Below, piece by piece: positions 3,008 through 64,000 of a stretch of DNA of 64,000 bases. The stretch spans positions 11,853 to 75,852 of the forward strand of contig JAZRGK010000025.1 in the NCBI GenBank assembly GCA_045644145.1. Direction: 5' to 3'. The notes beneath the pieces are model-generated. The model was not told where the DNA came from and did no database searches. It saw only the letters and a program-made list of their open reading frames with translations. Numbering within the stretch: position 1 is the stretch's first letter; every line of letters begins with the position of its first letter. Origin of the DNA: Candidatus Flemingiibacterium sp. (GTDB taxonomy: Bacteria; Bacillota; Clostridia; Oscillospirales; CAG-272). Both the position numbers and the translations under genes were made by a program.

Positions 3008-3111
3008 GTAAAATCAAAAAACCGTCCGCTGTGGGAATCCTGCTATAAATAGAGGGAAATGACCGCGTTTTTGTTTACGGCACTTTAAAATTTCAAAGCG
3101 TTCTGCAAAAA

Positions 3112-6585: not shown

Positions 6586-7521
6586 TTATTTTGCCGGATT
6601 CCAAAGTCCGGGATTAAGTACACGCTTTTCAGTATTTATAAACGCCTCGCGTATCTCGGCGATCTGGTCATCCGTAAACTCGATAGCTTCAGCAAACAGC
6701 GCCGCATTCGCCTTGACCTGTTCTACGGTTTCACAGCCTAAAACAAGGCTTGTTACTTCCTTTAAGCTTGAAGCATAGGATATCGCAAGTGCTGCAGGAG
6801 AAAGGTTGTATTTCTCGCACAGAGCGCGATATTTAACAAGCGTATCACGGCAGAATTCCATATGAGGCTCAAGCGTATCGGGGTTCTTAAACACAAGTCC
6901 CTGCAGGTACACGCTGCGGACGAATATCATCATTCCGGCGTCGTGAAGCTTCTTAAGTCCGCCGTTTTCGATCTGAACCCAGTCGAAAATGTTAAGGGGT
7001 ATCTGAACAGCATCAAAGCCACACTCGGCTATCTTGCCGTAATCGTCATCGGAATACGCTGATGTACCCGAGAAAAGTATATCTCCCGATTCCTTAAGCT
7101 CACGGAATACGGTTTTAATATCCTCCTCGTGTCCCACCGCTTCCTTAAAATGGTGCAGCATGAGCACGGGAATCTGAGCAAGCCCCAAATGCTTCTTGGA
7201 TGTTTCCACTTTTTCGCGGATGCACGCTCTGAGCGCGTCAATGGAAGAAAAATCGAATCCGGAAATCTTGGTAACGATCATGGGATGCTCGGAAGCCGCC
7301 TTTGTAGCAAGCCACTTTCCGATAACCTCCTCAGAGTCACCGTATGCGGCAGCGGTATCAAGCGTATTTATGCCGCACTCCATAGCCGCATCAAGGATAC
7401 TGAACGATGTAGCGAGGTCCGGCTTACCGCCTGTGTTGTTGATTCCATAGTTAAGGCCGAGCTGCACCGTACCAAGGGACAGCGCGGAAATTTCGATTCC
7501 TTTAACGGTCGTTGTTTTCAT
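6586..7521 (-). CDS. aldo/keto reductase
   Basis: The track ORF 6586-7638 runs through the promoter. The ATG at 7521 follows an AAAGGAAAC SD. Motifs are MKTTTVKGIEISALSLGTVQLG and NTLDTAAAYGDSEE. Confidence 0.85.
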   Translation of the reverse strand: MKTTTVKGIEISALSLGTVQLGLNYGINNTGGKPDLATSFSILDAAMECGINTLDTAAAYGDSEEVIGKWLATKAASEHPMIVTKISGFDFSSIDALRACIREKVETSKKHLGLAQIPVLMLHHFKEAVGHEEDIKTVFRELKESGDILFSGTSAYSDDDYGKIAECGFDAVQIPLNIFDWVQIENGGLKKLHDAGMMIFVRSVYLQGLVFKNPDTLEPHMEFCRDTLVKYRALCEKYNLSPAALAISYASSLKEVTSLVLGCETVEQVKANAALFAEAIEFTDDQIAEIREAFINTEKRVLNPGLWNPAK

Positions 7522-7609
7522 TTCACCGTTTCCTTTCGGGTATGTAAATGTATTATGTTTTGTAAGGGGTAAGCGGCATATATTCTCCGAAAAAACACTC
7601 CCCCACACA

Positions 7610-7638
7610 ATTATACACAACAAAAAAATAAAAGTCAA
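7610..7638 (-). promoter_or_regulatory. sigma-A promoter of the AKR-to-aldolase operon
   Basis: Reverse strand reads TTGACT-17 nt-TATAAT with a TG extension, about 90 nt upstream of ATG 7521. Confidence 0.6.
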
Positions 7639-7874
7639 GGGAAACCCATAAAATTACAAGCGATTTATGAATTACGCACAAACAAAATCAAGCAAATAAG
7701 CGTTTTTACATATACTTTACGATTCGCTCTATCCGCGCATCCACAAGGCATGTTAAAAAGAGGATTTTTAACATAAATTTCGATCTTTCTGCATGAATTT
7801 TTCCAAAACACTGTACAAGCGCGGCAAAATGTGGTATACTTTTATTTGTATAAATTTATTGTGAGGTGTTTTTC

Positions 7875-8087
7875 ATGCGATCTATTCCCCAAATAGCTGT
7901 CGGTGACATCATCGAAATGAAAAAGCCGCATCCTTGTTCTGATAAAAGCGTGCATTTTCGCGTACTGCGCGTCGGAAGCGATATCCGTATTGTCTGCGAG
8001 ACATGCGGCCGCGACCTTACAATACCGCGAATCAAGCTTGAAAAAAGCATACGCCGTATAGATCACAAAAACGGCGATAGTAAATAA
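7875..8087 (+). CDS. small conserved protein, DUF951-like
   Basis: The ATG at 7875 follows a GAGGTG SD; the track start at 7866 is GTG. The sequence MRSIPQIAVGDIIEMKKPHPCSDKSVHFRVLRVGSDIRIVCETCGRDLTIPR resembles the DUF951/YyzM family. The family call is from memory. Confidence 0.7.
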   Translation: MRSIPQIAVGDIIEMKKPHPCSDKSVHFRVLRVGSDIRIVCETCGRDLTIPRIKLEKSIRRIDHKNGDSK

Positions 8088-8094
8088 TTCTTTT

Positions 8095-10896
8095 ATGCTC
8101 TCTCCATCCAGCCATATAAAAATCCACCGAAAGGATCAACAAAAAACAATGAATGACAACTCAAAAGCCTTGTCAGATACCAAAAACGGTATCTGCTTCT
8201 CCCGAAATCCCCTCAAACGGATCTCCGCGCAGTTTTACGGGATGAATCATGCCTTCTCCGCGTTTTTCCTGCCTGTAATTATAATGGCACTTATATACAC
8301 CGCAATGAAGGTGTATCCATTTGGAGAAAACTCGGTGCTGGTGCTTGATCTTAACGGTCAGTATGTGTACTACTTTGAGGCCATGCGCGACTTTTTCCGC
8401 GGGGAGCAGGGTATCCTCTACTCTTTTGAGCGTGCGCTTGGCGGAGAATTTCTCGGAATTGTAGCCTATTATCTGGCAAGCCCCTTTACGGTTATCACCG
8501 CGCTTTTCCCAGAGGGCATGATAACCGAATCCCTTTACACCATGCTTCTTTTAAAATGCGGTCTTTGCGGCTTCAATATGTGTGTATACCTGCACAAATC
8601 GCATCCCACAAAGCCCACAAATGAGCTTATCTTTTCGGTTATTTACGCATTAACCTCTTATGCGGTGGTAATGCAGCACAACACCATGTGGATAGACTGT
8701 GTACTGTTTTTCCCCCTCATACTCCTTGGTATCGAATCTCTTATCAAGTACGGAAAATTCAAGCTCTATGTTTTCACCCTCGCTACAGCACTGTTTTCTA
8801 ACTACTACATCGGATACATGGTATGTATCGGAGTTGCGGCGTATTTCTTCTTCTACTACTTCATGTCAACACCCGAGGAACGCAATCCTCTTGACGAAAA
8901 AGCACACTTTCCTAAAGCGCTTGGGCGAATGGCACTGTATTCAATTATTGCCGTAGGAATGGCATCCAGTATCATTCTGCCTGCGTACTATTCCTTGAGC
9001 TTCGGAAAAACCACATTTTCAGAGCCAAATTACGATTTTCTGCAGCGATTTGACTTCCTTGATCTTATATCCAAAATGTATCCTGCATCCTACGACACGG
9101 TGCGTCCCGAAGGTTTGCCGTTCGTATTTTCCGGTACGCTTACGCTCATTCTTCTCCCGGTGTTCTTCCTCATTAAAGAGATCACACCGAGAAAAAAGAT
9201 TGCGTTCGGTCTCATCACCGCTTTCTTCGTGTTCAGCTTCAACAGCACCACACTTGATCTAATATGGCACGGCTTCCAGCGTCCAAATTGGCTGAACTAC
9301 CGCTACAGCTTCATGCTGTGCTTCATATTCATAGTTATAGCATATCTTGCCTTTGAGCATATCGAATCCTTTGACAACCGCATAATACTCGGTACAGGAG
9401 CGGTGCTCGGGCTTATCCTTGTGCTTCTTCAGAAGCTCGAGTACGAGAATCTCGATGACCTTATGGGAATATGGTTTGGCATCGCATGCATTGCTGTGTA
9501 TATGATTCTGCTTGCCGGATGCAACAGAGGATGGCTTGAAGGTGCACTGCCGTCTATCTTGTGCGTATTCGTCTTATTGGAACTGTTCTGCAACGGTCTT
9601 GCGGAAGTAGTTTCTCTTGACGAAGATGTGCGCTACAGTTCACGGACATCATACCGTTCATTTATTGATAAGTGGACGCCTGCAGCAGATTGGATGAACG
9701 AGAACGACACCTCATTCTACCGTGCAGAAAAGACTGACCACCGAAAGACCAACGACAACTTCACTCTTAACATCCGCGGTCTCTCCAACTCGACCTCTAC
9801 ACTCAACGCCAAGCAGATAGACTTCCTGCAGGAGCTTGGCTATGCTTCAAAATCACATTGGTCAAAATATCTTGGCGGCACCCCCGTGTCTGACAGCTTG
9901 CTTGGAGTAAAGTATATGCTTGCCGAAAACTCCAAAAAGCTGAACGACCTATGGGGAGAATCGATATGGTCAGACAATGAAAATTACATCTCCGTTTACA
10001 AAAACGAATACGCGCTCCCCATAGGATACATGGTATCCGAAGAAATGGCTGAGGTTGACCTTGACACTTACGAATCTCCCTTTGAGCGTATGAACGAGCT
10101 TTTTGGCGTAATTCTCGGTGAAGATGAGCCTATAGAGATTTTCAAGCCGTACAGCGATATTGCTCCCACAACAGATAACATCGACACTGCTTATGTCACC
10201 GGACACCGCAAGTACAAAAAGGCGCAAAACGGCTATGAGTCCAAGCTAAACTTTGAACTGATCCCCCAAAACGATTACGAGGTATTTGTGTTCTTCCCAA
10301 GCGAGTACAAACGCGATGCCACACTCAAATTAAACGGCGCGGAAATCTCCGAATACTTCACAAACGAAACCTACCGCATAGTTTCCCTCGGTCGTCTTAC
10401 CCCGAACGAACCTTCCATCGTCACGCTGACTCTTGATGCGGATGACCTCTATATTTCAAGCAGTGCAGATTATTTCTACTACCTTGACGAGGCGCTGTTC
10501 CGGGAAGTTATGCCGCGCATTGCCGAATACGGCTACAATATCGAAAGCTTTACCGACAGCAGCTTTACGGGCACTGTAACCGTTCCTGAAAACCGAACCA
10601 CGTTTATGCTGACCATCCCATATGACGAGGGCTGGAAGATATACGTTGACGGCGAAGAAGCAGTGACCGCTCCCATACTTGAAGCCTTGACCGCAGTGGA
10701 GCTTACAGAGGGCACACATACCCTTGAGCTTTACTATCGTCCCGACTGTGTAGGATACGGAATCATCATATCCGCGGCATCTCATGTGCTTCTTGTTATC
10801 CTGATCGTAACGGAGCAGATAATAAAGCGTAAGCGCGCCGCAAAAACGCTCTATGTCACGGAAAATATCAATGAAGAACCGGAAGTCGAGACATAA
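8095..10896 (+). CDS. YfhO-family polytopic membrane protein (putative glycosyltransferase/glycopolymer modification)
   Basis: 933-aa ORF with many TM helices in the first ~500 aa, a large extracytoplasmic domain and a C-terminal TM helix. The start is ambiguous: ATG 8095 lies 7 nt after the DUF951 stop with no SD, and ATG 8149 has a distant AAAGGA. Confidence 0.75.
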   Translation: MLSPSSHIKIHRKDQQKTMNDNSKALSDTKNGICFSRNPLKRISAQFYGMNHAFSAFFLPVIIMALIYTAMKVYPFGENSVLVLDLNGQYVYYFEAMRDFFRGEQGILYSFERALGGEFLGIVAYYLASPFTVITALFPEGMITESLYTMLLLKCGLCGFNMCVYLHKSHPTKPTNELIFSVIYALTSYAVVMQHNTMWIDCVLFFPLILLGIESLIKYGKFKLYVFTLATALFSNYYIGYMVCIGVAAYFFFYYFMSTPEERNPLDEKAHFPKALGRMALYSIIAVGMASSIILPAYYSLSFGKTTFSEPNYDFLQRFDFLDLISKMYPASYDTVRPEGLPFVFSGTLTLILLPVFFLIKEITPRKKIAFGLITAFFVFSFNSTTLDLIWHGFQRPNWLNYRYSFMLCFIFIVIAYLAFEHIESFDNRIILGTGAVLGLILVLLQKLEYENLDDLMGIWFGIACIAVYMILLAGCNRGWLEGALPSILCVFVLLELFCNGLAEVVSLDEDVRYSSRTSYRSFIDKWTPAADWMNENDTSFYRAEKTDHRKTNDNFTLNIRGLSNSTSTLNAKQIDFLQELGYASKSHWSKYLGGTPVSDSLLGVKYMLAENSKKLNDLWGESIWSDNENYISVYKNEYALPIGYMVSEEMAEVDLDTYESPFERMNELFGVILGEDEPIEIFKPYSDIAPTTDNIDTAYVTGHRKYKKAQNGYESKLNFELIPQNDYEVFVFFPSEYKRDATLKLNGAEISEYFTNETYRIVSLGRLTPNEPSIVTLTLDADDLYISSSADYFYYLDEALFREVMPRIAEYGYNIESFTDSSFTGTVTVPENRTTFMLTIPYDEGWKIYVDGEEAVTAPILEALTAVELTEGTHTLELYYRPDCVGYGIIISAASHVLLVILIVTEQIIKRKRAAKTLYVTENINEEPEVET

Positions 10897-41366: not shown

Positions 41367-41442
41367 GCGGATTTAGCTCATTTGGTAGAGCGCGACCTTG
41401 CCAAGGTCGAGGTGGCGGGTTCGAGCCCCGTAATCCGCTCCA
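41367..41442 (+). tRNA. tRNA-Gly (anticodon GCC), CCA encoded
   Basis: I folded the cloverleaf by hand: acceptor GCGGATT/AATCCGC, D arm GCTC/GAGC, anticodon stem CGACC/GGTCG with loop TTGCCAA, T arm GCGGG-TTCGAGC-CCCGT, then TCCA. Confidence 0.93.
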
Positions 41443-41464
41443 ATTTTTCGGCTGTGCCGAAAAT

Positions 41465-41540
41465 GGAAGCTTAGCTCAGCTGGGAGAGCATCTGCCTTAC
41501 AAGCAGAGGGTCACAGGTTCGAGCCCTGTAGCTTCCACCA
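41465..41540 (+). tRNA. tRNA-Val (anticodon TAC), CCA encoded
   Basis: The hand-folded cloverleaf has acceptor GGAAGCT/AGCTTCC, D arm GCTC/GAGC, anticodon stem TCTGC/GCAGA with loop CTTACAA, T arm ACAGG-TTCGAGC-CCTGT, then ACCA. Confidence 0.93.
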
Positions 41541-50758: not shown

Positions 50759-53560
50759 ATGGCAGAAACCAAGAAGAACCAGACTAAAATAAGTGCACTT
50801 GCAAAGGACCTCGGCATTAAAAGCAAGGAATTAACAGATGTTCTTGCGGCAAACGGCATTGAGGGAAAATCCTCTTCCGCATCTCTTGATCCCGAGGAAT
50901 TCAACCTTATCATGAGCACCCTTACAGAGCGTGCGCAGGTGGATAATATCGGTGACTATCTCGACGGAAAAACGAAGATTGTTACCGAAGCCCCCAAGAA
51001 AGAAACACCTAAGGCTGAAGAGCCCAAGAAAGAGCTTGCGCCCAAAACCGAAGAACCAAAAAAAGAATCACCCAAGCCCGAAGAATCCAAGAAGGAAGCA
51101 CCAAAGGCAGACGCGCCCAAAAAAGAGACTCCGAAGGCAGATCAGCCTAAGCGAGATGCGGACAATCGCGACATTGCACGTTCTCAGAGCGTACAGAACC
51201 GCGACAATCGCGACGGCGCACGTCCTCAAGGCAGCTTCCAGAACCGCGATAATCGCGACGGCGCACGTCCTCAGAACTTCCAGAACCGCGATAATCGCGA
51301 CGGTGCACGTCCTCAGGGCTTCCAGAACCGCGACAATCGCGACGGCGTACGTCCCCAGGGCGGCTTCCAGCCTCGCGACAACCGCGACGGCGCACGTCCT
51401 CAGGGCGGCTTCCAGCCTCGCGACAACCGTGACGGCGCACGTCCCCAGAACTTCCAGCCTCGTGATAACCGTGGACAGGGCGGATTTGGCGGCGGATTCA
51501 AAGACAAGGATTCCGGCAACGAGCGCAGAAGCAATAAGAACCGTGAACCGGTACACACCTATACACGCGGTCAGAATGCAGGCAAGAATACGGGTGAAAG
51601 CCGCATAGTTGATATGCGCACCAGTACCGTTGACCTTGGTAAGTATGATGAGCGTCTTGAAAATCTCGCTTCCGAAACCGGAAGAAACGAGCGTGCTGAA
51701 AAGCAGAAATTAAAGAAGCAGAACAACCGTGACGGGCACAGCCAGCGTGAAAAAGAGCGCATGGCTATGGAAAAGCTTCGCAAGCAGGGCATCGAAAAGG
51801 CTAAAAAGCAGCCCCTTCAGATCACCGTTCCCGACGAGATTTCCGTTGGTGAGCTTGCTTCCCGTCTTAAGGTAACCGCCGCTGAGGTTATTAAGCGCCT
51901 TATGCTCCTTGGCGTAATGGCTACCGTTAACGAAATTATAGATTACGATACCGCATATCTTGTTGCCGATGAGCTTGGCGCAAAGGTTACAAAGGAAGTG
52001 GTTATCACTATCGAGGAAAGACTTTTCGACGAAGCAGAGGACAAAGACGAGGATCTTCTTCCCAGAAGCCCCGTTGTCTGCGTAATGGGCCACGTTGACC
52101 ACGGTAAGACATCGCTCCTTGACGCTATCCGTCATACCAACGTAACCTCCGGCGAGGCAGGCGGTATTACTCAGGCTATCGGTGCATACCGCGTGCGTCT
52201 TAACGACCGCGATATCACATTCCTTGATACCCCCGGCCACGAAGCCTTCACCTCTATGCGTGCACGCGGTGCAAAGTCCACCGATATCGCGATTCTCGTT
52301 GTAGCGGCGGACGACGGTATCATGCCACAGACCGTTGAGGCTATCAACCATGCAAAAGCGGCAGGTATTGATATAGTTGTAGCAATAAATAAGATGGATA
52401 AGCCCGAGGCTAACCCCGATGTGGTTAAGCAGGAGCTTACAAAATACGAGCTTGTGCCCGAGGAGTGGGGCGGTGACGTTATCTGCGTTCCCGTGTCTGC
52501 GCTTACCGGCATGGGTATCGACGATCTTCTCGAAAATCTCCTTCTTGTTGCGGATATGAAGGAGCTTAAGGCTAACCCTAATCGCCGCGCGAAAGGTCTT
52601 GTGCTTGAAGCAAAGCTTGATAAGGGCCGCGGCCCTGTTGCTACCGTGCTGGTACAGAACGGTACCCTCAACGCAGGCGATATCGTTATCGCAGGTACTG
52701 CGGTGGGTCGTGTCCGCGCAATGACCGACGACAAGGGCAGAACGGTCAAGACCGCAGGCCCATCCGTTCCCGTTGAGATCATCGGTCTTTCCGAGGTTCC
52801 CGAATCCGGTGACGAGTTTGCAGCTGTAGAAGACGAGCGCATGGCACGCGAGCTTGCGGAGCAGCGCCGCGAAAAGGCTAAGAACGAGCAGTTCAAGGCT
52901 AACGCAAAAGTAAACCTCAACGATCTGTTCGCACAGATCTCCGAGGGCGTAAAAGACCTCAATATCATTGTAAAAGCAGACGTTGGCGGATCTGCCGAGG
53001 CTGTTAAGCAGTCCCTTCAGAAGCTCTCCAACGAGGAAGTCCGCGTAAACATCATTCACACCGCTGTCGGCGGTATTACCGAGGGCGACGTAATGCTTGC
53101 GGCGGCATCCAATGCGCTGATCGTAGGCTTCAACGTGCGTCCCGACAAGTCTGCTATTGACAAGGCGGAGCGCGAAACCGTTGAGATCCGCACATATCGC
53201 ATCATCTACGAGTGCATCGAGGAAGTTGAAGCGGCTATGAAGGGTATGCTTGCTCCCAAGTTTAAGGAAGTGGTTCTCGGCCATGCCCAGGTTCGTCAGA
53301 CCATCCACGTTCCCTCTGTTGGTACTATTGCAGGTTCTTATGTTCAGGACGGTAAGGTATCGAGAAACGCTCAGATCCGCGTAGTACGTGACGGCGTTGT
53401 GATCTTCGAGGATAAGATATCCTCTCTTAAGAGATTCAAGGACGATGCCAAGGAGGTTGCTCAGGGTTATGAGTGCGGTATCGGTCTTGAACGCTTCAAC
53501 GACATTAAGGAAGGCGACATTCTCGAAGCCTTCATTATGGAAGAAGTTAAGGCTCAGTAA
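50759..53560 (+). CDS. infB: translation initiation factor IF-2
   Basis: 933 aa with G-domain motifs [14 protein letters not shown] and NKMD, and a long repetitive N-terminal region. Confidence 0.97.
51194..51475 (+). repeat. in-frame tandem repeat (about 6.5 copies of 42-45 nt) inside infB
   Basis: The units cagaaccgcgayaatcgcgacggygcacgtcctcagrrc(ggc)ttc encode Q(N/P)[10 protein letters not shown](G/N)(G)F. They are contiguous with no spacers. Confidence 0.9.
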
Positions 53561-58684: not shown

Positions 58685-58713
58685 AAAAGCTCCGATAAGG
58701 AATCGAAGCTTCA
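58685..58713 (-). terminator. terminator after RNase P RNA
   Basis: The minus strand reads AGCTTCGAT-TCCTT-ATCGGAGCT (one G-U pair) followed by TTTTTGTTTG. Confidence 0.7.
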
Positions 58714-58726
58714 TATTATAAAATAT

Positions 58727-59112
58727 GCGAGTGAATCCATAAGCCGGGTTCTGTTTTAGCGATCATCTATCTTTGCGCACCGTTGCCGGCTCGCTCAGCA
58801 GTAAAGCAAAGCCGTACCGCTTGCCACCCATGGAATCTGTCGGGCAGACAGCCCTGCGTAATAAGCGCAGGGGTTCCATATGCGGTGTTGCTTCGGATAG
58901 GGTTTACAGCGGACCTATGTTACCATAGGAACTCGTGAGCTCTTACCTCGCGTTTCCATCCTTACCGATAAAATCGGCGGTTTATTTCTGTTGCACTTTC
59001 CCGGAGGTCACCCTCGGCGGACGTTATCCGTTATCCTGCCCTTTGAAGCCCGGACTTTCCTCACGGTAATACCTTTCGGCTACATACCGCGCGATCACCC
59101 GAATCACTCGCG
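58727..59112 (-). ncRNA. rnpB: RNase P RNA (bacterial, type A-like)
   Basis: The reverse strand contains the universally conserved GAGGAAAGTCCGGGC and ACAGAACCCGGCTTA (P4 halves) and GGTAAGAGCTCAC. The 5' GCGAGTGA pairs with the 3' TCACTCGC (P1). The track ORF 58991-59290 is an artefact on its antisense. Confidence 0.92.
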
Positions 59113-59118
59113 TATAAA

Positions 59119-59147
59119 ATTATACCACAACTTTGGGGGCTTGTCAA
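59119..59147 (-). promoter_or_regulatory. consensus sigma-A promoter of rnpB
   Basis: Reverse strand reads TTGACA-17 nt-TATAAT with a TG extension. The -10 ends 7 nt before the P1 5' strand. Confidence 0.75.
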
Positions 59148-59357
59148 CGGTCGCGGCTCAAAAAACCTCTGTTGGATTTTTTGTTCTGCGCTTTGTGAAT
59201 GCCACGAAAAGTGTACAGTTTTTTAAAAAATGCGCACAATTATTTACAGTCTGTATATTGCGAAGATGCTTTTTTTATGCTATAATATAATGTATATTTA
59301 TATTCTTACCGCTGTGTTATCCACGCGATAACCGGGAATATGATCAAGGAGCTTCTC

Positions 59358-62288
59358 ATGAAAATCGGACTTGACATCGGTTCAACAACACTTAAATGCG
59401 TTGTGATGGACGATGAAAACAAAATAATATATAAATCCTACAAACGGCATTTTGCAAAGATCAACGAGGCGACCTCTGAACTTTTGCGCACACTGTGTGC
59501 CGAGGTTTCGGGGGCTTCCGATGCCCTGCTGTCCGTTTCCGGCTCTGCAGGTATGGGTATGGCTGAAGCTTGCGGCATCGGCTTCGTTCAAGAGGTGTAC
59601 GCTACACGTCTTGCAGTCAAGCGTCTTATCCCCGAAACAGACGTGGTAATTGAGCTTGGCGGAGAGGATGCGAAAATACTTTACCTTGACGGAACTATGG
59701 AGGTACGCATGAACGGCACCTGCGCCGGCGGCACAGGTGCGTTCATAGACCAAATGGCAACTCTGCTTGCTGTTACTCCCGATGACCTGAATGATCTTTC
59801 TCACGGCTGTGAAAAAATATATACTATCGCGTCACGGTGCGGCGTTTTCGCAAAAAGCGACATCCAGCCGCTTATTAACCAGGGCGCAAGAAAAGAGGAT
59901 ATTGCGGCGAGCATATTCTATGCGGTTGTCAATCAGACTATCGCAGGGCTTGCCCAAGGACGTCCTATCGAGGGCAAAGTGGTATATCTTGGCGGTCCGC
60001 TTACATTCATGGACGGTCTTCGCGGCGCTTTTGACAAGTCACTCGGGCTATCCGGAATATGTCCCGACAATTCCCTTTATTTCGTGGCAATCGGCGCGGC
60101 ACTGGGAGCAGAACTTGGCACAGATCATATCACCTTAAAGGAAGCCGCCGAGCGAATAGCAGAATATCGCACTGAGGGGCGCTATCTCTCGTGCAGACCG
60201 CTGTTTGAATCCGAAGCGGAATATGCGGAGTTTGCCGAACGTCACAGTGCAGATAAGGTAGAACATAAGACCCCCGAGAATTATTCGGGAAAAGCATACA
60301 TAGGAATCGATGCCGGTTCTACTACGGTTAAGGTGGTTGTTATGAACGAGGACGGCGACATCCTCTGCTCTTTATACCGCCCCAACAACGGTAATCCCGT
60401 GCCGATAATAAGAGAATTCCTTGCGGATTTTTACAGTAAGTACCCGAACATAACCGTTGCCGGCTCTGCGGTTACCGGTTATGGCGAGGAGATCGTCAAA
60501 AATGCATTCGCGGCAGACTGCGGCATTGTTGAAACCATGGCGCATTTCTTTGCTGCAAAGCATTTTTTGCCTTCCGTTGATTTTATAATCGATATCGGCG
60601 GTCAGGATATAAAGTGCTTCAAAATAAGAAACGGTGCCATCGACAACATTTTCTTAAACGAGGCATGCTCATCCGGATGCGGATCATTTCTTCAGACATT
60701 TGCCAGAGCACTCGGTGTGGATATTGCGGAATTTGCACGTCAGGGACTATTTGCAAAGTCCCCCGTTGACCTTGGTTCACGCTGTACGGTGTTTATGAAT
60801 TCCTCGGTGAAGCAGGCGCAAAAGGATGGGGCGACCGTTGACAATATTTCCGCCGGTCTGTCCATATCCGTTGTCAAAAACGCCCTTTACAAGGTAATCC
60901 GCGCATCGGAACCAGATGATCTTGGTAAAAATATAGTTGTGCAGGGCGGTACGTTCCTAAATGATGCGGTTCTACGTGCTTTCGAGCAGGAAATCGGCAG
61001 AAATGTGGTTCGTCCCAATATCGCCGGACTTATGGGAGCGTACGGCGCGGCTATTTATGCGAAGGACACTGCAAATGGCATATCAACGCTTCTTGATGCC
61101 GAGAAATTAGCGGATTTTAAGCATGATGTAAAGGTAACCACCTGCGGTCTGTGCGAGAACCATTGCCGCCTCACCGTCAACACCTTTGACGGCGGCAGAA
61201 AATTCATCGGCGGCAACCGATGCGAGCGTCCCACTGCAAGGGGCGGCACGCTTAAGTATTACGACCTTTACGAATATAAGCTTGAGCTGCTTAACTCATA
61301 CACGGACAAGCCCGAAAATCCCAAGGCACGCATAGGTCTTCCCATGGGGCTTAATATGTACGAAATGCTTCCGTTTTGGCACACGCTTTTCACTAAGCTG
61401 GGATTTGAACTTGTGCTGTCACCACGCTCCGACAGAAAGCTGTATCTGCGCGGTCAGCATACCATTCCTTCGGATACGGTGTGCTTCCCGGCGAAGCTTA
61501 TTCACGGTCACATTGAGGCGCTTATTGACGAGGATGTTGATGCCGTCTTCTATCCCTGTATGACTTACAACTTCAATGAGAAGATGGGCGACAATCATTA
61601 CAACTGTCCCGTTGTGGCGTATTACCCCGAGGTAATCGGCGCAAATGTGCCACGTCTAAGGGGCGGTGTTAAGTTTATTCAGGATTATATTGGCGTTCAC
61701 CGTCCAAAGGATTTCGCTGTAAAGCTTCACGGAATACTCGAAAAATATTTCGGAAGCCTTGATATAAACGCGGTAAAAACCGCATGTGCAGCGGCATATG
61801 CGGAGCGTGAGGCGTTCCTTATGCGCGTGCGTGAAAAGGGCGAAGAATTTATCCGCAGGGCAAGGGAAGAAGGTATGCCCATAATCGTGCTTTCCGGCCG
61901 TCCGTATCACGTTGATCCCGAGATAAACCACGGTATAAACCGTCTTATCTGTGAGTGCGGTGCCGCGGTCATAACCGAGGATGCGGTAAGTCATCTTGCG
62001 GACAAATTCAAAGTGAATGTGCTCAATCAGTGGACGTACCATTCCCGTCTTTATGCGGCGGCGAAATATGTGGACAAAACAGACGACATGAATCTTGTCC
62101 AGCTTGTATCCTTTGGATGCGGCGTTGATGCAATTACCACAGATGAGGTGCGTTCCATACTCGAAGATGCAGGAAAGATATATACCCAGATAAAAATTGA
62201 CGAGATAACCAATCTCGGTGCGGTGAAGATAAGGCTGCGCAGCCTGTTTGCGGCATGCGAGGCTAAGAAAAGAGAGGAGAAGGCATAA
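59358..62288 (+). CDS. fused tandem HgdC/BcrAD-type activase (2 ASKHA ATPase repeats) with C-terminal dehydratase-related domain
   Basis: The ATG at 59358 follows an AAGGAG SD. The repeats start MKIGLDIGSTTLKCVV and AYIGIDAGSTTVKVVV. Each repeat keeps two Cys (NGTCAGG/ASRCGVF and NEACSSG/GSRCTVF). These are followed by the patch CGLCENHC...NRCERP and a C-terminal ~340-aa domain. Confidence 0.85.
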   Translation: MKIGLDIGSTTLKCVVMDDENKIIYKSYKRHFAKINEATSELLRTLCAEVSGASDALLSVSGSAGMGMAEACGIGFVQEVYATRLAVKRLIPETDVVIELGGEDAKILYLDGTMEVRMNGTCAGGTGAFIDQMATLLAVTPDDLNDLSHGCEKIYTIASRCGVFAKSDIQPLINQGARKEDIAASIFYAVVNQTIAGLAQGRPIEGKVVYLGGPLTFMDGLRGAFDKSLGLSGICPDNSLYFVAIGAALGAELGTDHITLKEAAERIAEYRTEGRYLSCRPLFESEAEYAEFAERHSADKVEHKTPENYSGKAYIGIDAGSTTVKVVVMNEDGDILCSLYRPNNGNPVPIIREFLADFYSKYPNITVAGSAVTGYGEEIVKNAFAADCGIVETMAHFFAAKHFLPSVDFIIDIGGQDIKCFKIRNGAIDNIFLNEACSSGCGSFLQTFARALGVDIAEFARQGLFAKSPVDLGSRCTVFMNSSVKQAQKDGATVDNISAGLSISVVKNALYKVIRASEPDDLGKNIVVQGGTFLNDAVLRAFEQEIGRNVVRPNIAGLMGAYGAAIYAKDTANGISTLLDAEKLADFKHDVKVTTCGLCENHCRLTVNTFDGGRKFIGGNRCERPTARGGTLKYYDLYEYKLELLNSYTDKPENPKARIGLPMGLNMYEMLPFWHTLFTKLGFELVLSPRSDRKLYLRGQHTIPSDTVCFPAKLIHGHIEALIDEDVDAVFYPCMTYNFNEKMGDNHYNCPVVAYYPEVIGANVPRLRGGVKFIQDYIGVHRPKDFAVKLHGILEKYFGSLDINAVKTACAAAYAEREAFLMRVREKGEEFIRRAREEGMPIIVLSGRPYHVDPEINHGINRLICECGAAVITEDAVSHLADKFKVNVLNQWTYHSRLYAAAKYVDKTDDMNLVQLVSFGCGVDAITTDEVRSILEDAGKIYTQIKIDEITNLGAVKIRLRSLFAACEAKKREEKA

Positions 62289-63586
62289 TGGGCAGAGTAG
62301 AATTTACAAAAAAAATGCGCAAAGACTACACTATTCTCGTGCCCAATATGCTGTCAAATCACTTCAAGCTTCTTCTTAAGGTGTTTCAGGGACAGGGTTA
62401 CAACGTCGAACTTTTAAAAAATGAGGGAAGATCTGTCATTGAAGCCGGACTTAAATATGTGCACAACGACACCTGTTATCCTGCGCTCCTTGTTATCGGG
62501 CAGATGATAGATGCCCTGCAGAGTGGGAAATACGACACTCATAAGGTTGCACTTATCATAACCCAGACCGGCGGCGGATGCAGAGCATCTAACTATATCC
62601 ATCTTTTGAGAAAAGCGCTTAAGAAAGCCAGTCTTGACTATGTTCCCGTTATTTCTTTGAATCTCTCGGGACTTGAAAGAAACAGCGGTTTCTCACTTAC
62701 GCTCGGTTTCCTGCGCCGTCTTATAGCGGCTATGGCCTACGGCGATCTTCTCATGCTGTTATCGAATCAGGTGCGCCCTTACGAGATCACTAAGGGAGAT
62801 GCGGACAGGCTGGTTGACAAATGGGCAGGTAAGCTTGTTTCCGACTTTGGAAGCGGAAAAGCTTTCGCAAAAAAGGCAATGCGCTCCTATATGGAACGTA
62901 TTACCGCGGATTTTGCCGCCATTCCAACCGATCGCACAAGAAAATGCGTAAAGGTAGGCATCGTTGGCGAGATTTATGTGAAATTCTCATCACTTGCCAA
63001 TAATCACCTTGAGGAGTTTTTAGCATCCGAAGGATGCGAGGTCAACGTGCCCGGACTTATGAGCTTTATTCTCTTTAAGGTGGATAACCGAATGGAAGAC
63101 ATCAAGCTCTACGGCGGAAGTAAGTTAAAATTTGCGGTCTGCAAAAAGCTTTTTGATTATCTTGCGGAAATCGAGCAGATCGAGATCGAATCCGTGAAGA
63201 AAAACAGCGCCTTTAATCCCTCCACTGCTTATTCACATCTGCGCGAGCTTATTTACGGCATCGAAGGATACGGATGCAAAATGGGTGAAGGCTGGCTGCT
63301 CACCGCAGAAATGCTTGAGCTTATTGAAGGCGGTTACAGCAATATTGTGTGCGCCCAGCCCTTCGGATGCCTGCCCAATCATATTGTCGGCAAGGGAATG
63401 ATACGCAGACTTCGCGAGCTTCATCCCGATTCCAATATTGTGCCAATTGACTACGATCCCGGCGCAACCCGTGTAAATCAGGAAAACCGCATAAGGCTTA
63501 TGCTTTCCGTTGCCCGCGAACAGATGGACGTTGGTAACGCAAAAATCTGCACACATGAATCGGATAAAGAGCCGGCTCTTGTATGA
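62288..63586 (+). CDS. 2-hydroxyacyl-CoA dehydratase / double-cubane-cluster-protein-like subunit, substrate unknown
   Basis: 432 aa. The start overlaps the upstream stop (TAATG). Conserved-looking Cys motifs are HNDTCYP, TGGGCRASNY and CAQPFGCLPNH. Confidence 0.75.
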   Translation: MGRVEFTKKMRKDYTILVPNMLSNHFKLLLKVFQGQGYNVELLKNEGRSVIEAGLKYVHNDTCYPALLVIGQMIDALQSGKYDTHKVALIITQTGGGCRASNYIHLLRKALKKASLDYVPVISLNLSGLERNSGFSLTLGFLRRLIAAMAYGDLLMLLSNQVRPYEITKGDADRLVDKWAGKLVSDFGSGKAFAKKAMRSYMERITADFAAIPTDRTRKCVKVGIVGEIYVKFSSLANNHLEEFLASEGCEVNVPGLMSFILFKVDNRMEDIKLYGGSKLKFAVCKKLFDYLAEIEQIEIESVKKNSAFNPSTAYSHLRELIYGIEGYGCKMGEGWLLTAEMLELIEGGYSNIVCAQPFGCLPNHIVGKGMIRRLRELHPDSNIVPIDYDPGATRVNQENRIRLMLSVAREQMDVGNAKICTHESDKEPALV

Positions 63587-64000
63587 TAAAAATAACCATT
63601 CCGGAATATGTACGTCGGGTAATGGCAGAAATATCCGCTCTGAAAACAACCTTAGATGGAGAGCTTCGCAGAGGTGAGGTGTATGCGGTTGGCGGATGCG
63701 TGCGCGATGCGTTACTTGGCAAAACACCAAACGATTGGGACGTTACAACAAATCTCCCGGCGGAAACGGTGCTTGAACACTTCACCTCTGTTGACGGCTT
63801 CAGTGCATATCCCACGGGATTACAGCACGGTACGGTTACAGTTGTAAAAGACAGCATGCCCGTCGAGGTTACTACTTTCCGAACGGAGTCGGCGTATGCG
63901 GACCACAGACATCCTACGGTCGTATCCTTTGTGCACAACCTTGGTGAAGATCTGAAGCGCCGCGATTTTACGGTAAACGCCATGGCATACTCGGATAACC
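63583..64000 (+). CDS. cca: CCA-adding tRNA nucleotidyltransferase / poly(A) polymerase family (5' part; continues past right edge)
   Basis: The ATG at 63583 overlaps the upstream stop (ATGA). My hand translation MIKITIPEYV...VYAVGGCVRDALLGKTPNDWDVTT...RRDFTVNAMAYSDN shows the head-domain motifs. It is not in the ORF track because it is edge-truncated. Confidence 0.9.
   Translation, partial: MIKITIPEYVRRVMAEISALKTTLDGELRRGEVYAVGGCVRDALLGKTPNDWDVTTNLPAETVLEHFTSVDGFSAYPTGLQHGTVTVVKDSMPVEVTTFRTESAYADHRHPTVVSFVHNLGEDLKRRDFTVNAMAYSDN

Follow-up and report, generated by a model that had tools for sequence, protein, structure and literature searches.

Two adjacent genes, plsA (59358–62288, + strand) and plsR (62288–63586, + strand), lie near the end of the 64,000-nt stretch of Candidatus Flemingiibacterium sp. 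DNA that was analyzed here (contig JAZRGK010000025.1, hereafter the window), and we consider it probable that this pair is an orthologue of the plsA-plsR operon for anaerobic plasmalogen synthase. The pls operon, which became known in 2021, is found widely among gut anaerobes; as a known system the pair offers little scientific novelty, and its substrate would be assignable by homology to a validated enzyme. The original prediction, made from the DNA sequence, had described the pair as a self-contained ATP-driven reductase. It had placed it in the low-potential class that includes benzoyl-CoA reductases (BCR), 2-hydroxyacyl-CoA dehydratases (HAD) and double-cubane cluster proteins (DCCP), and this is borne out by a double activator and by two further modules with the fold of DCCP, HadBC and BzdNO. 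It had also held that no substrate could be assigned, a view which gives way to the full-length homology described below, as the partner protein PlsR groups with an enzyme of known substrate, the PlsR of Clostridium perfringens.

The reference for this assignment is the C. perfringens plsA-plsR operon (CPE1194/CPE1195; UniProt Q8XL48/Q8XL47), for which Jackson et al. (2021) are reported to have demonstrated plasmalogen formation genetically and by expression in E. coli (PMC9702350, PMC12838417). A 4,199-bp C. perfringens fragment confers plasmalogen synthesis on E. coli, and PlsA/PlsR is placed in the BCR/HAD family with an organization of two activator modules (Act1 and Act2) and two reductase modules (Red1 and Red2), which are fused into one protein in facultative anaerobes (PMC9702350, PMC12838417). 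In order to find the reference locus, the published cloning primers, trimmed to their gene-specific portions, were used (PMC12838417 Table S6). The primer search first gave two loci of Clostridium sp. (L001 and L002), in the second of which the reverse primer was without a match, and C. perfringens PlsR was reached by a protein search with the Clostridium sp. PlsR, followed by a cluster look-up that led to P0241, the PlsR of contig L003, which is identical to BAB80900.1 of C. perfringens. On L003, both primers match exactly, at positions 3065 and 7263, and define an amplicon of 4,199 bp; L003 therefore carries the validated operon.

C. perfringens PlsA (L003:3065-5989) and the PlsA of the window share 55% identity and 72% similarity over 970 of 976 residues, with only 7 gap positions, and the two PlsR proteins are 54% identical over 405 residues. 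The validated enzymes of E. faecalis and L. cremoris share 48–55% (PlsA part) and 41–42% (PlsR part) identity with those of C. perfringens (PMC12838417), so that the window pair is at least as close to the C. perfringens enzyme as other plasmalogen-making enzymes are. Both organisms have two genes in the same order, encoding two activator repeats, a patch of four cysteines (Cys4) and Red1 in the first protein and Red2 in the second, with sizes of 975 (C. perfringens) and 976 (window) residues for PlsA and of 420 and 432 residues, respectively, for PlsR, and all 14 core cysteines are kept. The systems differ at the junction, where the C. perfringens genes are separated by 8 nt and those of the window overlap by 1 nt, in about 20 extra C-terminal residues of the window PlsR, in the downstream gene (for a two-component system in C. 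perfringens, cca in the window), and in the host, since the Oscillospiraceae/Ruminococcaceae-like bacterium of the window belongs to another order of Clostridia. Orthology is argued because collinear full-length identity at this level coincides with the same gene order, invariant cysteines and near-identical lengths.

Fused PlsA proteins of E. faecalis (EF1327), L. cremoris and Bifidobacterium longum subsp. suis consist of the same four modules and lead to plasmalogens in E. coli (PMC12838417). They are single polypeptides of 1415–1639 residues, whereas the window uses two overlapping genes, and the fused genes of facultative anaerobes have a TetR-like regulator upstream (PMC9702350) that is absent at the window locus. 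When the two window proteins are concatenated, fused relatives align with them along the whole length at 36–49% identity and show the same cysteines; one of them, from Parascardovia (Bifidobacteriaceae), is 45% identical.

The reading frame of plsA ends with a TAA codon at 62286–62288 and has two candidate starts on the + strand, at 59340 and at 59358. The latter is preferred because an AAGGAG box (59346–59351) is located 6 nt upstream and because homologues align from residue 2, and the protein then comprises 976 residues. In Pfam, it matched BcrAD_BadFG in two stretches (E 1.3e-59) and, at residues 658–877, DUF2229 along the whole profile (E 4.7e-74; positions 1–218 of 218), and NCBIfam recognized an acyl-CoA dehydratase activase domain twice. 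The same Pfam outcome, two activase stretches plus DUF2229, was obtained for a Clostridium PlsA orthologue. Act1 (59358–60122, + strand; residues 1–255) and Act2 (60300–61076, + strand; residues 315–573) are HgdC-type ASKHA ATPase repeats, the first with the motifs DIGSTT (residue 6) and GGED (residue 101), the second with DAGSTT (residue 318) and GGQD (residue 414), and the phosphate-binding motifs are intact in both. Each repeat aligns over about 250 residues with HgdC (1hux) and HadI (4eht), with E 6.7e-28 for Act1 against 1hux_A (residues 6–254) and, for Act2, E 4.8e-34 against 4eht_A and E 8e-31 against 1hux_A. In these alignments, C122 and C161 of Act1 as well as C437 and C476 of Act2 fall on Cys127 and Cys166 of HgdC, the residues that, as Locher et al. 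reportedly found in 2001, ligate the bridging [4Fe-4S] cluster. The two ASKHA (BcrAD/BadFG) repeats in one chain, the cluster cysteines in each of them and the CxxCxxxC...C patch followed by a further domain, which is DUF2229, had all been noticed in the original prediction and are present as it described them.

Cysteine conservation was followed in 20 dereplicated split pairs, including that of C. perfringens, and in 15 fused relatives of 1340–1620 residues (36–49% identity). Across the 20 split pairs and 15–16 of the fused sequences, 14 cysteines are invariant or nearly so, 11 of them in PlsA (C122, C161, C437, C476, C596, C599, C603, C622, C709, C750 and C921) and three in PlsR (C63, C98 and C361). 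The four activator cysteines C122, C161, C437 and C476 are invariant in the 20 split and 15 fused relatives. The Cys4 patch (61143–61223, + strand; C596-x2-C599-x3-C603...C622), which lies between the activator repeats and Red1, has all four cysteines in 20/20 split sequences and in 16/17 sequences when split and fused forms are taken together. Two further cysteines are partly conserved, C734 in 8/17 and C355 in 13/17 sequences. In the AlphaFold2 model, the Cys4 patch forms a small beta-sheet of moderate confidence; the patch probably represents an additional site for a metal or an Fe-S cluster.

The catalytic part is divided between the two genes. Red1 (61329–62285, + strand; PlsA residues 658–976) is a reductase/dehydratase-like module that contains the DUF2229 match and the invariant cysteines C709, C750 and C921, and Red2 is formed by the 432 residues of PlsR, with C63, C98 and C361 invariant and C355 present in most sequences. 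In Pfam, PlsR gave only an N-terminal DUF2229 match (E 5.5e-8), HGD-D remaining below threshold with 16.9 bits against a cut-off of 28.4 bits; no NCBIfam model matches PlsR, and its sequence had no match in the PDB at E<=1. Models of good overall confidence were obtained with AlphaFold2 (pLDDT 87.5 for PlsA residues 577–976 and 86.6 for PlsR). When the models were compared with the PDB by Foldseek, the best folds for Red1 were DCCP (7yyl/6eno), BzdNO (8s02) and MbdON (9g87) with probability 1.00 and TM 0.43–0.45, and those for Red2 were 7yyl, 3o3m, 6eno and 8s02 (DCCP, HadBC and BzdNO) with probability 1.00 and TM 0.38–0.43; these are matches of moderate TM, with an rmsd of about 10 Å and 11–12% identity. 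The HadBC fold was matched by PlsR only and MbdON by Red1 only. The cysteine motifs of the two modules mirror each other (SDTVC-FPA and SFGCG in Red1, NDTC-YPA and PFGCL in PlsR), and an hhalign comparison of Red1 with PlsR gave a weak N-terminal match over 59 columns (E 3.8e-4, probability 36%). As this match is weak, the paralogy of Red1 and PlsR rests mainly on the common fold and on the cysteine motifs DT-C-[FY]-PA and FG-C.

Among the known systems of this class, HgdC/HgdAB and HadI/HadBC resemble the window pair in the activator repeats, which align over their full length including both cluster cysteines, and in the HadBC fold and three-cysteine pattern shared by Red1 and Red2. The activator of the window differs from HgdC and HadI in that it is a fused pseudo-dimer with a covalent link to one of the catalytic modules, and the catalytic modules of the window lack detectable sequence similarity to HadBC and HgdAB. 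Also, the proposed substrate would be a membrane lipid ester rather than an acyl-CoA, and the reaction would be a net two-electron reduction and not a redox-neutral dehydration as in HAD enzymes. The DCCP/DCCP-R system of Carboxydothermus hydrogenoformans (6eno, 7yyl) is the top structural match for Red1 and Red2 (TM 0.42–0.45), and DCCP-R matches both activator repeats of the window. DCCP, however, is a homodimer with a six-cysteine [Fe8S9] cluster, whereas the window core would be a heterodimer of different modules that match it at 11–12% identity and an rmsd of about 10 Å.

According to Jeoung and Dobbek in 2018, a DCCP monomer is said to use six cysteines for its [Fe8S9] cluster. The catalytic modules of the window have three invariant cysteines each, plus one that is partly conserved (C734 or C355), and DCCP proper was rejected as an identity for the pair; the designation double-cubane-like in the original prediction is not supported, the cysteine pattern being of the HAD type.

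We propose that the two HgdC-like repeats of PlsA jointly provide C122, C161, C437 and C476 to one bridging [4Fe-4S] cluster. By analogy with HgdC/HgdAB and DCCP-R/DCCP, ATP hydrolysis in Act1 and Act2 would lower the potential of this cluster and inject electrons into the clusters of Red1 and Red2, and the Cys4 site, as an extra metal or Fe-S site, might serve as an electron relay or entry point. The catalytic core would be a pseudo-heterodimer of Red1, the C-terminal DUF2229 module of PlsA, and Red2, with three invariant cysteines per module that may resemble the 3-Cys [4Fe-4S] sites of 2-hydroxyacyl-CoA dehydratases. This core would reduce the carbonyl of the sn-1 acyl ester in a diacyl glycerophospholipid, and a subsequent dehydration would yield the 1-alk-1'-enyl (vinyl ether) lipid. 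For the reaction, two successive one-electron reductions, a protonation and a dehydration are given in the summary of the work of Jackson et al. that is contained in PMC8788747. The enzyme would act from the membrane periphery on the bulk lipid. When both proteins were scanned, neither PlsA nor PlsR showed a hydrophobic segment long enough for a membrane span; this result and the lack of nearby acyl-CoA or CoA-transferase genes fit a soluble enzyme with bulk membrane lipid as its substrate.

A word-indexed protein search with PlsR as query returned at least 8000 homologues, and 572 representatives of 50%-identity clusters were found at E<=1e-30. The homologues occur as stand-alone forms of about 400–440 residues and as fused forms of about 1340–1620 residues. 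In the cultured relative Yeguia hominis, PlsR shares 66% identity with that of the window. In metagenome loci, plsA adjoins plsR on its upstream side in 78/80 cases, and in the remaining two the sequence upstream is shorter than 700 nt. The gene pair is thus not a product of chance, as indicated by thousands of homologues and by the invariant cysteines. Cluster look-ups of two fused representatives returned no member from Thermotoga, Desulfatibacillum or Enterococcus. One cluster of fused PlsA-like proteins (P0349) comprises sequences of 1905–1922 residues, about 450 above the usual size, with the Red2 part at residues 1423–1820. Also, a fused PlsA-like protein of 1415 residues (P0386, KAL0229736.1) is annotated on a 2.17-Mb contig of the anaerobic eukaryote Barthelona sp. 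PCE, a metamonad, and may reflect the transfer of an anaerobic ether-lipid enzyme from a bacterium to a protist.

Several points weigh against a vinyl-ether product in this organism, which is proposed here from homology. According to a 2026 paper, PlsA (forming vinyl ethers) and Ger, a glycerol ester reductase (forming saturated alkyl ethers), are not yet separable from their primary sequences (PMC13274423), and some strains that carry homologues contain no detectable plasmalogen (PMC12838417). Some Bacillota possess two PlsA-like paralogues, and the window represents only 64 kb of the genome, so that a second copy may lie outside it.

The alternative that survives best, although we regard it as rather unlikely, is a Ger-type glycerol ester reductase, in which the same machinery would act on the same lipid substrate and form a saturated 1-O-alkyl ether, either as the sole product or accompanied by some plasmalogen. 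Ger is homologous to PlsA and shares its core, two activase domains plus DUF2229; it acts only under anoxic conditions on the sn-1 ester of glycerolipids, and the enzymes of Thermotoga maritima (Tmari_0479) and Desulfatibacillum alkenivorans (SHJ90043) were validated in E. coli (PMC13159169). The inseparability of the two enzymes by sequence alone (PMC13274423) speaks for this alternative, as do the two Pfam-detectable activase domains of the window protein, a feature that one paper tied to alkyl-ether producers. The C. perfringens vinyl-ether enzyme, however, likewise shows two activase stretches, and this criterion therefore does not discriminate between the two. The validated Ger proteins, which were compared by description only, yield a saturated alkyl ether and consist of one fused polypeptide each, with small additional D and H domains (PMC13159169), whereas the window form is encoded by two split genes. 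In addition, the window pair aligns without large indels with the validated C. perfringens vinyl-ether enzyme at the identities given above, and the fused relatives are more distant from it (36–49%). That the pair is encoded by two separate genes and lies close to C. perfringens would favour PlsA/PlsR over Ger.

Less probable still, and in our view improbable, is an ATP-driven reductase of the BCR, HAD or DCCP type with a non-lipid substrate, either a small molecule or an acyl-CoA, in which case the likeness to PlsA/PlsR would reflect paralogy only. Such a function is suggested by public annotations as acyl-CoA dehydratase activase or 2-hydroxyacyl-CoA dehydratase, by a fold that is common to DCCP, HadBC and BzdNO, by the lack of a specific NCBIfam model for the 432-residue protein, and by the existence of PlsA-like paralogues in some Bacillota. 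It is opposed by the full-length collinear identity to the validated enzyme together with gene order, invariant cysteines and lengths, by the absence of adjacent CoA-related genes, and by the fact that similarity to the sequences of solved HAD, BCR and DCCP catalytic subunits is undetectable (no PDB match at E<=1; HGD-D at 16.9 vs 28.4 bits). A 2-hydroxyacyl-CoA dehydratase proper was rejected on the basis of the sub-threshold HGD-D score, the missing PDB sequence match (E<=1) and the lack of an acyl-CoA gene context, and a benzoyl-CoA reductase proper because no sequence similarity to solved BCR catalytic subunits was detectable. No CoA-transferase or acyl-CoA genes were found near the pair within the window, where its neighbours are rnpB, cca, a NifS-like gene, a proA-like gene and an SNF transporter gene. 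This absence had been stated correctly in the original prediction, but the conclusion drawn from it, that the substrate could not be assigned, does not follow; such genes are not expected next to a plasmalogen synthase, as its substrate would be a membrane glycerolipid and not an acyl-CoA.

At the 3' end, the pair is tightly packed with its neighbour. The ATG of plsR overlaps the TAA of plsA by 1 nt (TAATG, 62286–62290) and the TGA of plsR overlaps the ATG of cca (ATGA, 63583–63586), so the start of the 432-residue partner and its overlap with cca are located where the original prediction had placed them. The cca reading frame (63583–64000, + strand) is cut by the window end, and its 5' part encodes the head domain of a CCA-adding tRNA nucleotidyltransferase (PolyA_pol in Pfam, E 4e-29; CCA tRNA nucleotidyltransferase in NCBIfam, E 8.5e-36). 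A candidate sigma-70-type promoter (59258–59286, + strand; TTGCGA, 17 nt, TATAAT with a TG extension), found by a consensus scan only with 10/12 matches, sits in the 247 bp that separate rnpB from plsA, and no terminator-like site of note was detected on the + strand in the interior of the operon. Co-transcription of plsA, plsR and cca is likely in view of this promoter and of the lack of an internal terminator.

Linkage to cca is, however, rare in the family. Of the 56 loci in which at least 1 kb is available downstream of plsR, only four, from about three lineages, have cca next to it; the other 52 lack it at this place. The linked loci are L005 (90% PlsR identity), L006 and L007 (75%) and L008 (66%), with an ATGA junction in L005 and a 1-nt overlap (TGATG) in L007 and L008. 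Other loci have genes for a zinc-ribbon protein, GH16, Band 7, DegV or a heptaprenyl-diphosphate-synthase-like protein downstream of plsR, and C. perfringens has the two-component system mentioned above. In the 75%-identity lineage, a gene for a 569-residue GH31 glycosidase is inserted between plsA and plsR (L007 4159–5868, and also in L006), which indicates that unrelated genes are tolerated in the operon. In L008 (~7250–8934), the 3' end of plsR together with cca is nearly identical to L007, and the plsA/plsR body resembles that of the abundant L025 group (64.5% identity); this locus may have arisen by recombination, or else from a chimeric metagenome assembly.

For the genes past the window end, the 90% relative L005 (1–13242) served as guide; in it, a NifS-like cysteine desulfurase gene, a PsbP-like lipoprotein gene, rnpB, plsA, plsR, cca and thiI follow one another, with an RNase Y gene further on. 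The genome of the window probably has the same order beyond the window end, and in this lineage only, plsAR is situated inside a housekeeping RNA-maturation neighbourhood. A functional link of the reductase to tRNA 3'-end maturation or RNA metabolism would be consistent with the stop/start overlaps with cca (ATGA in the window and in L005, 1 nt in L007 and L008) and with the RNA genes nearby (rnpB upstream, thiI and RNase Y downstream in L005), but the small number of cca-linked loci, the varied downstream genes elsewhere and the GH31 insertion make it very improbable. A functional tie between plsAR and cca is largely refuted by this lack of conservation. We give just as little credence to a combined possibility, that this subclade of the PlsA/PlsR family has acquired a non-lipid substrate or that ether-lipid synthesis and tRNA maturation are truly co-regulated through the plsR-cca overlap. 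The coupling to cca that had been pointed out in the original prediction is real as an overlap, but the linkage is confined to the closest lineages and is missing from most relatives and from C. perfringens. The overlap is best read as local synteny, with cca as a neighbour and not as part of the lipid enzyme.

Recognition of the pair as plsA-plsR means that this uncultured Oscillospiraceae-like bacterium probably produces ether lipids (plasmalogens), which is relevant for studies of lipids in the gut microbiome such as PMC10076029. Public databases leave an annotation gap here, with names such as "2-hydroxyacyl-CoA dehydratase", "acyl-CoA dehydratase activase" or "yxcA" in use even for C. perfringens. 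Readers are led to an "unknown substrate" by these misleading names, by the lack of an NCBIfam model for PlsR and by a Pfam result that consists of DUF2229 only.

Divergently from plsA, the window contains rnpB (58724–59110, - strand), which encodes an RNase P RNA of bacterial class A, was recognized with 229.6 bits over the full-length model and had gone unmentioned in the original prediction. A promoter-like site with a perfect TTGACA-17-TATAAT arrangement and a TG extension is located immediately upstream of it at 59147–59119, and a terminator-like hairpin is found beyond the gene at 58712–58686. Two tRNA genes, tRNA-Gly(GCC) and tRNA-Val(TAC), stand in tandem at 41367–41540 (+ strand). The part of infB (50759–53560) that encodes the N-terminal region of IF-2 carries tandem repeats at 50985–51457, whose periods are 30 nt and 45/87 nt; their translation gives PKKE-rich and (F)[12 protein letters not shown](G) peptide repeats.

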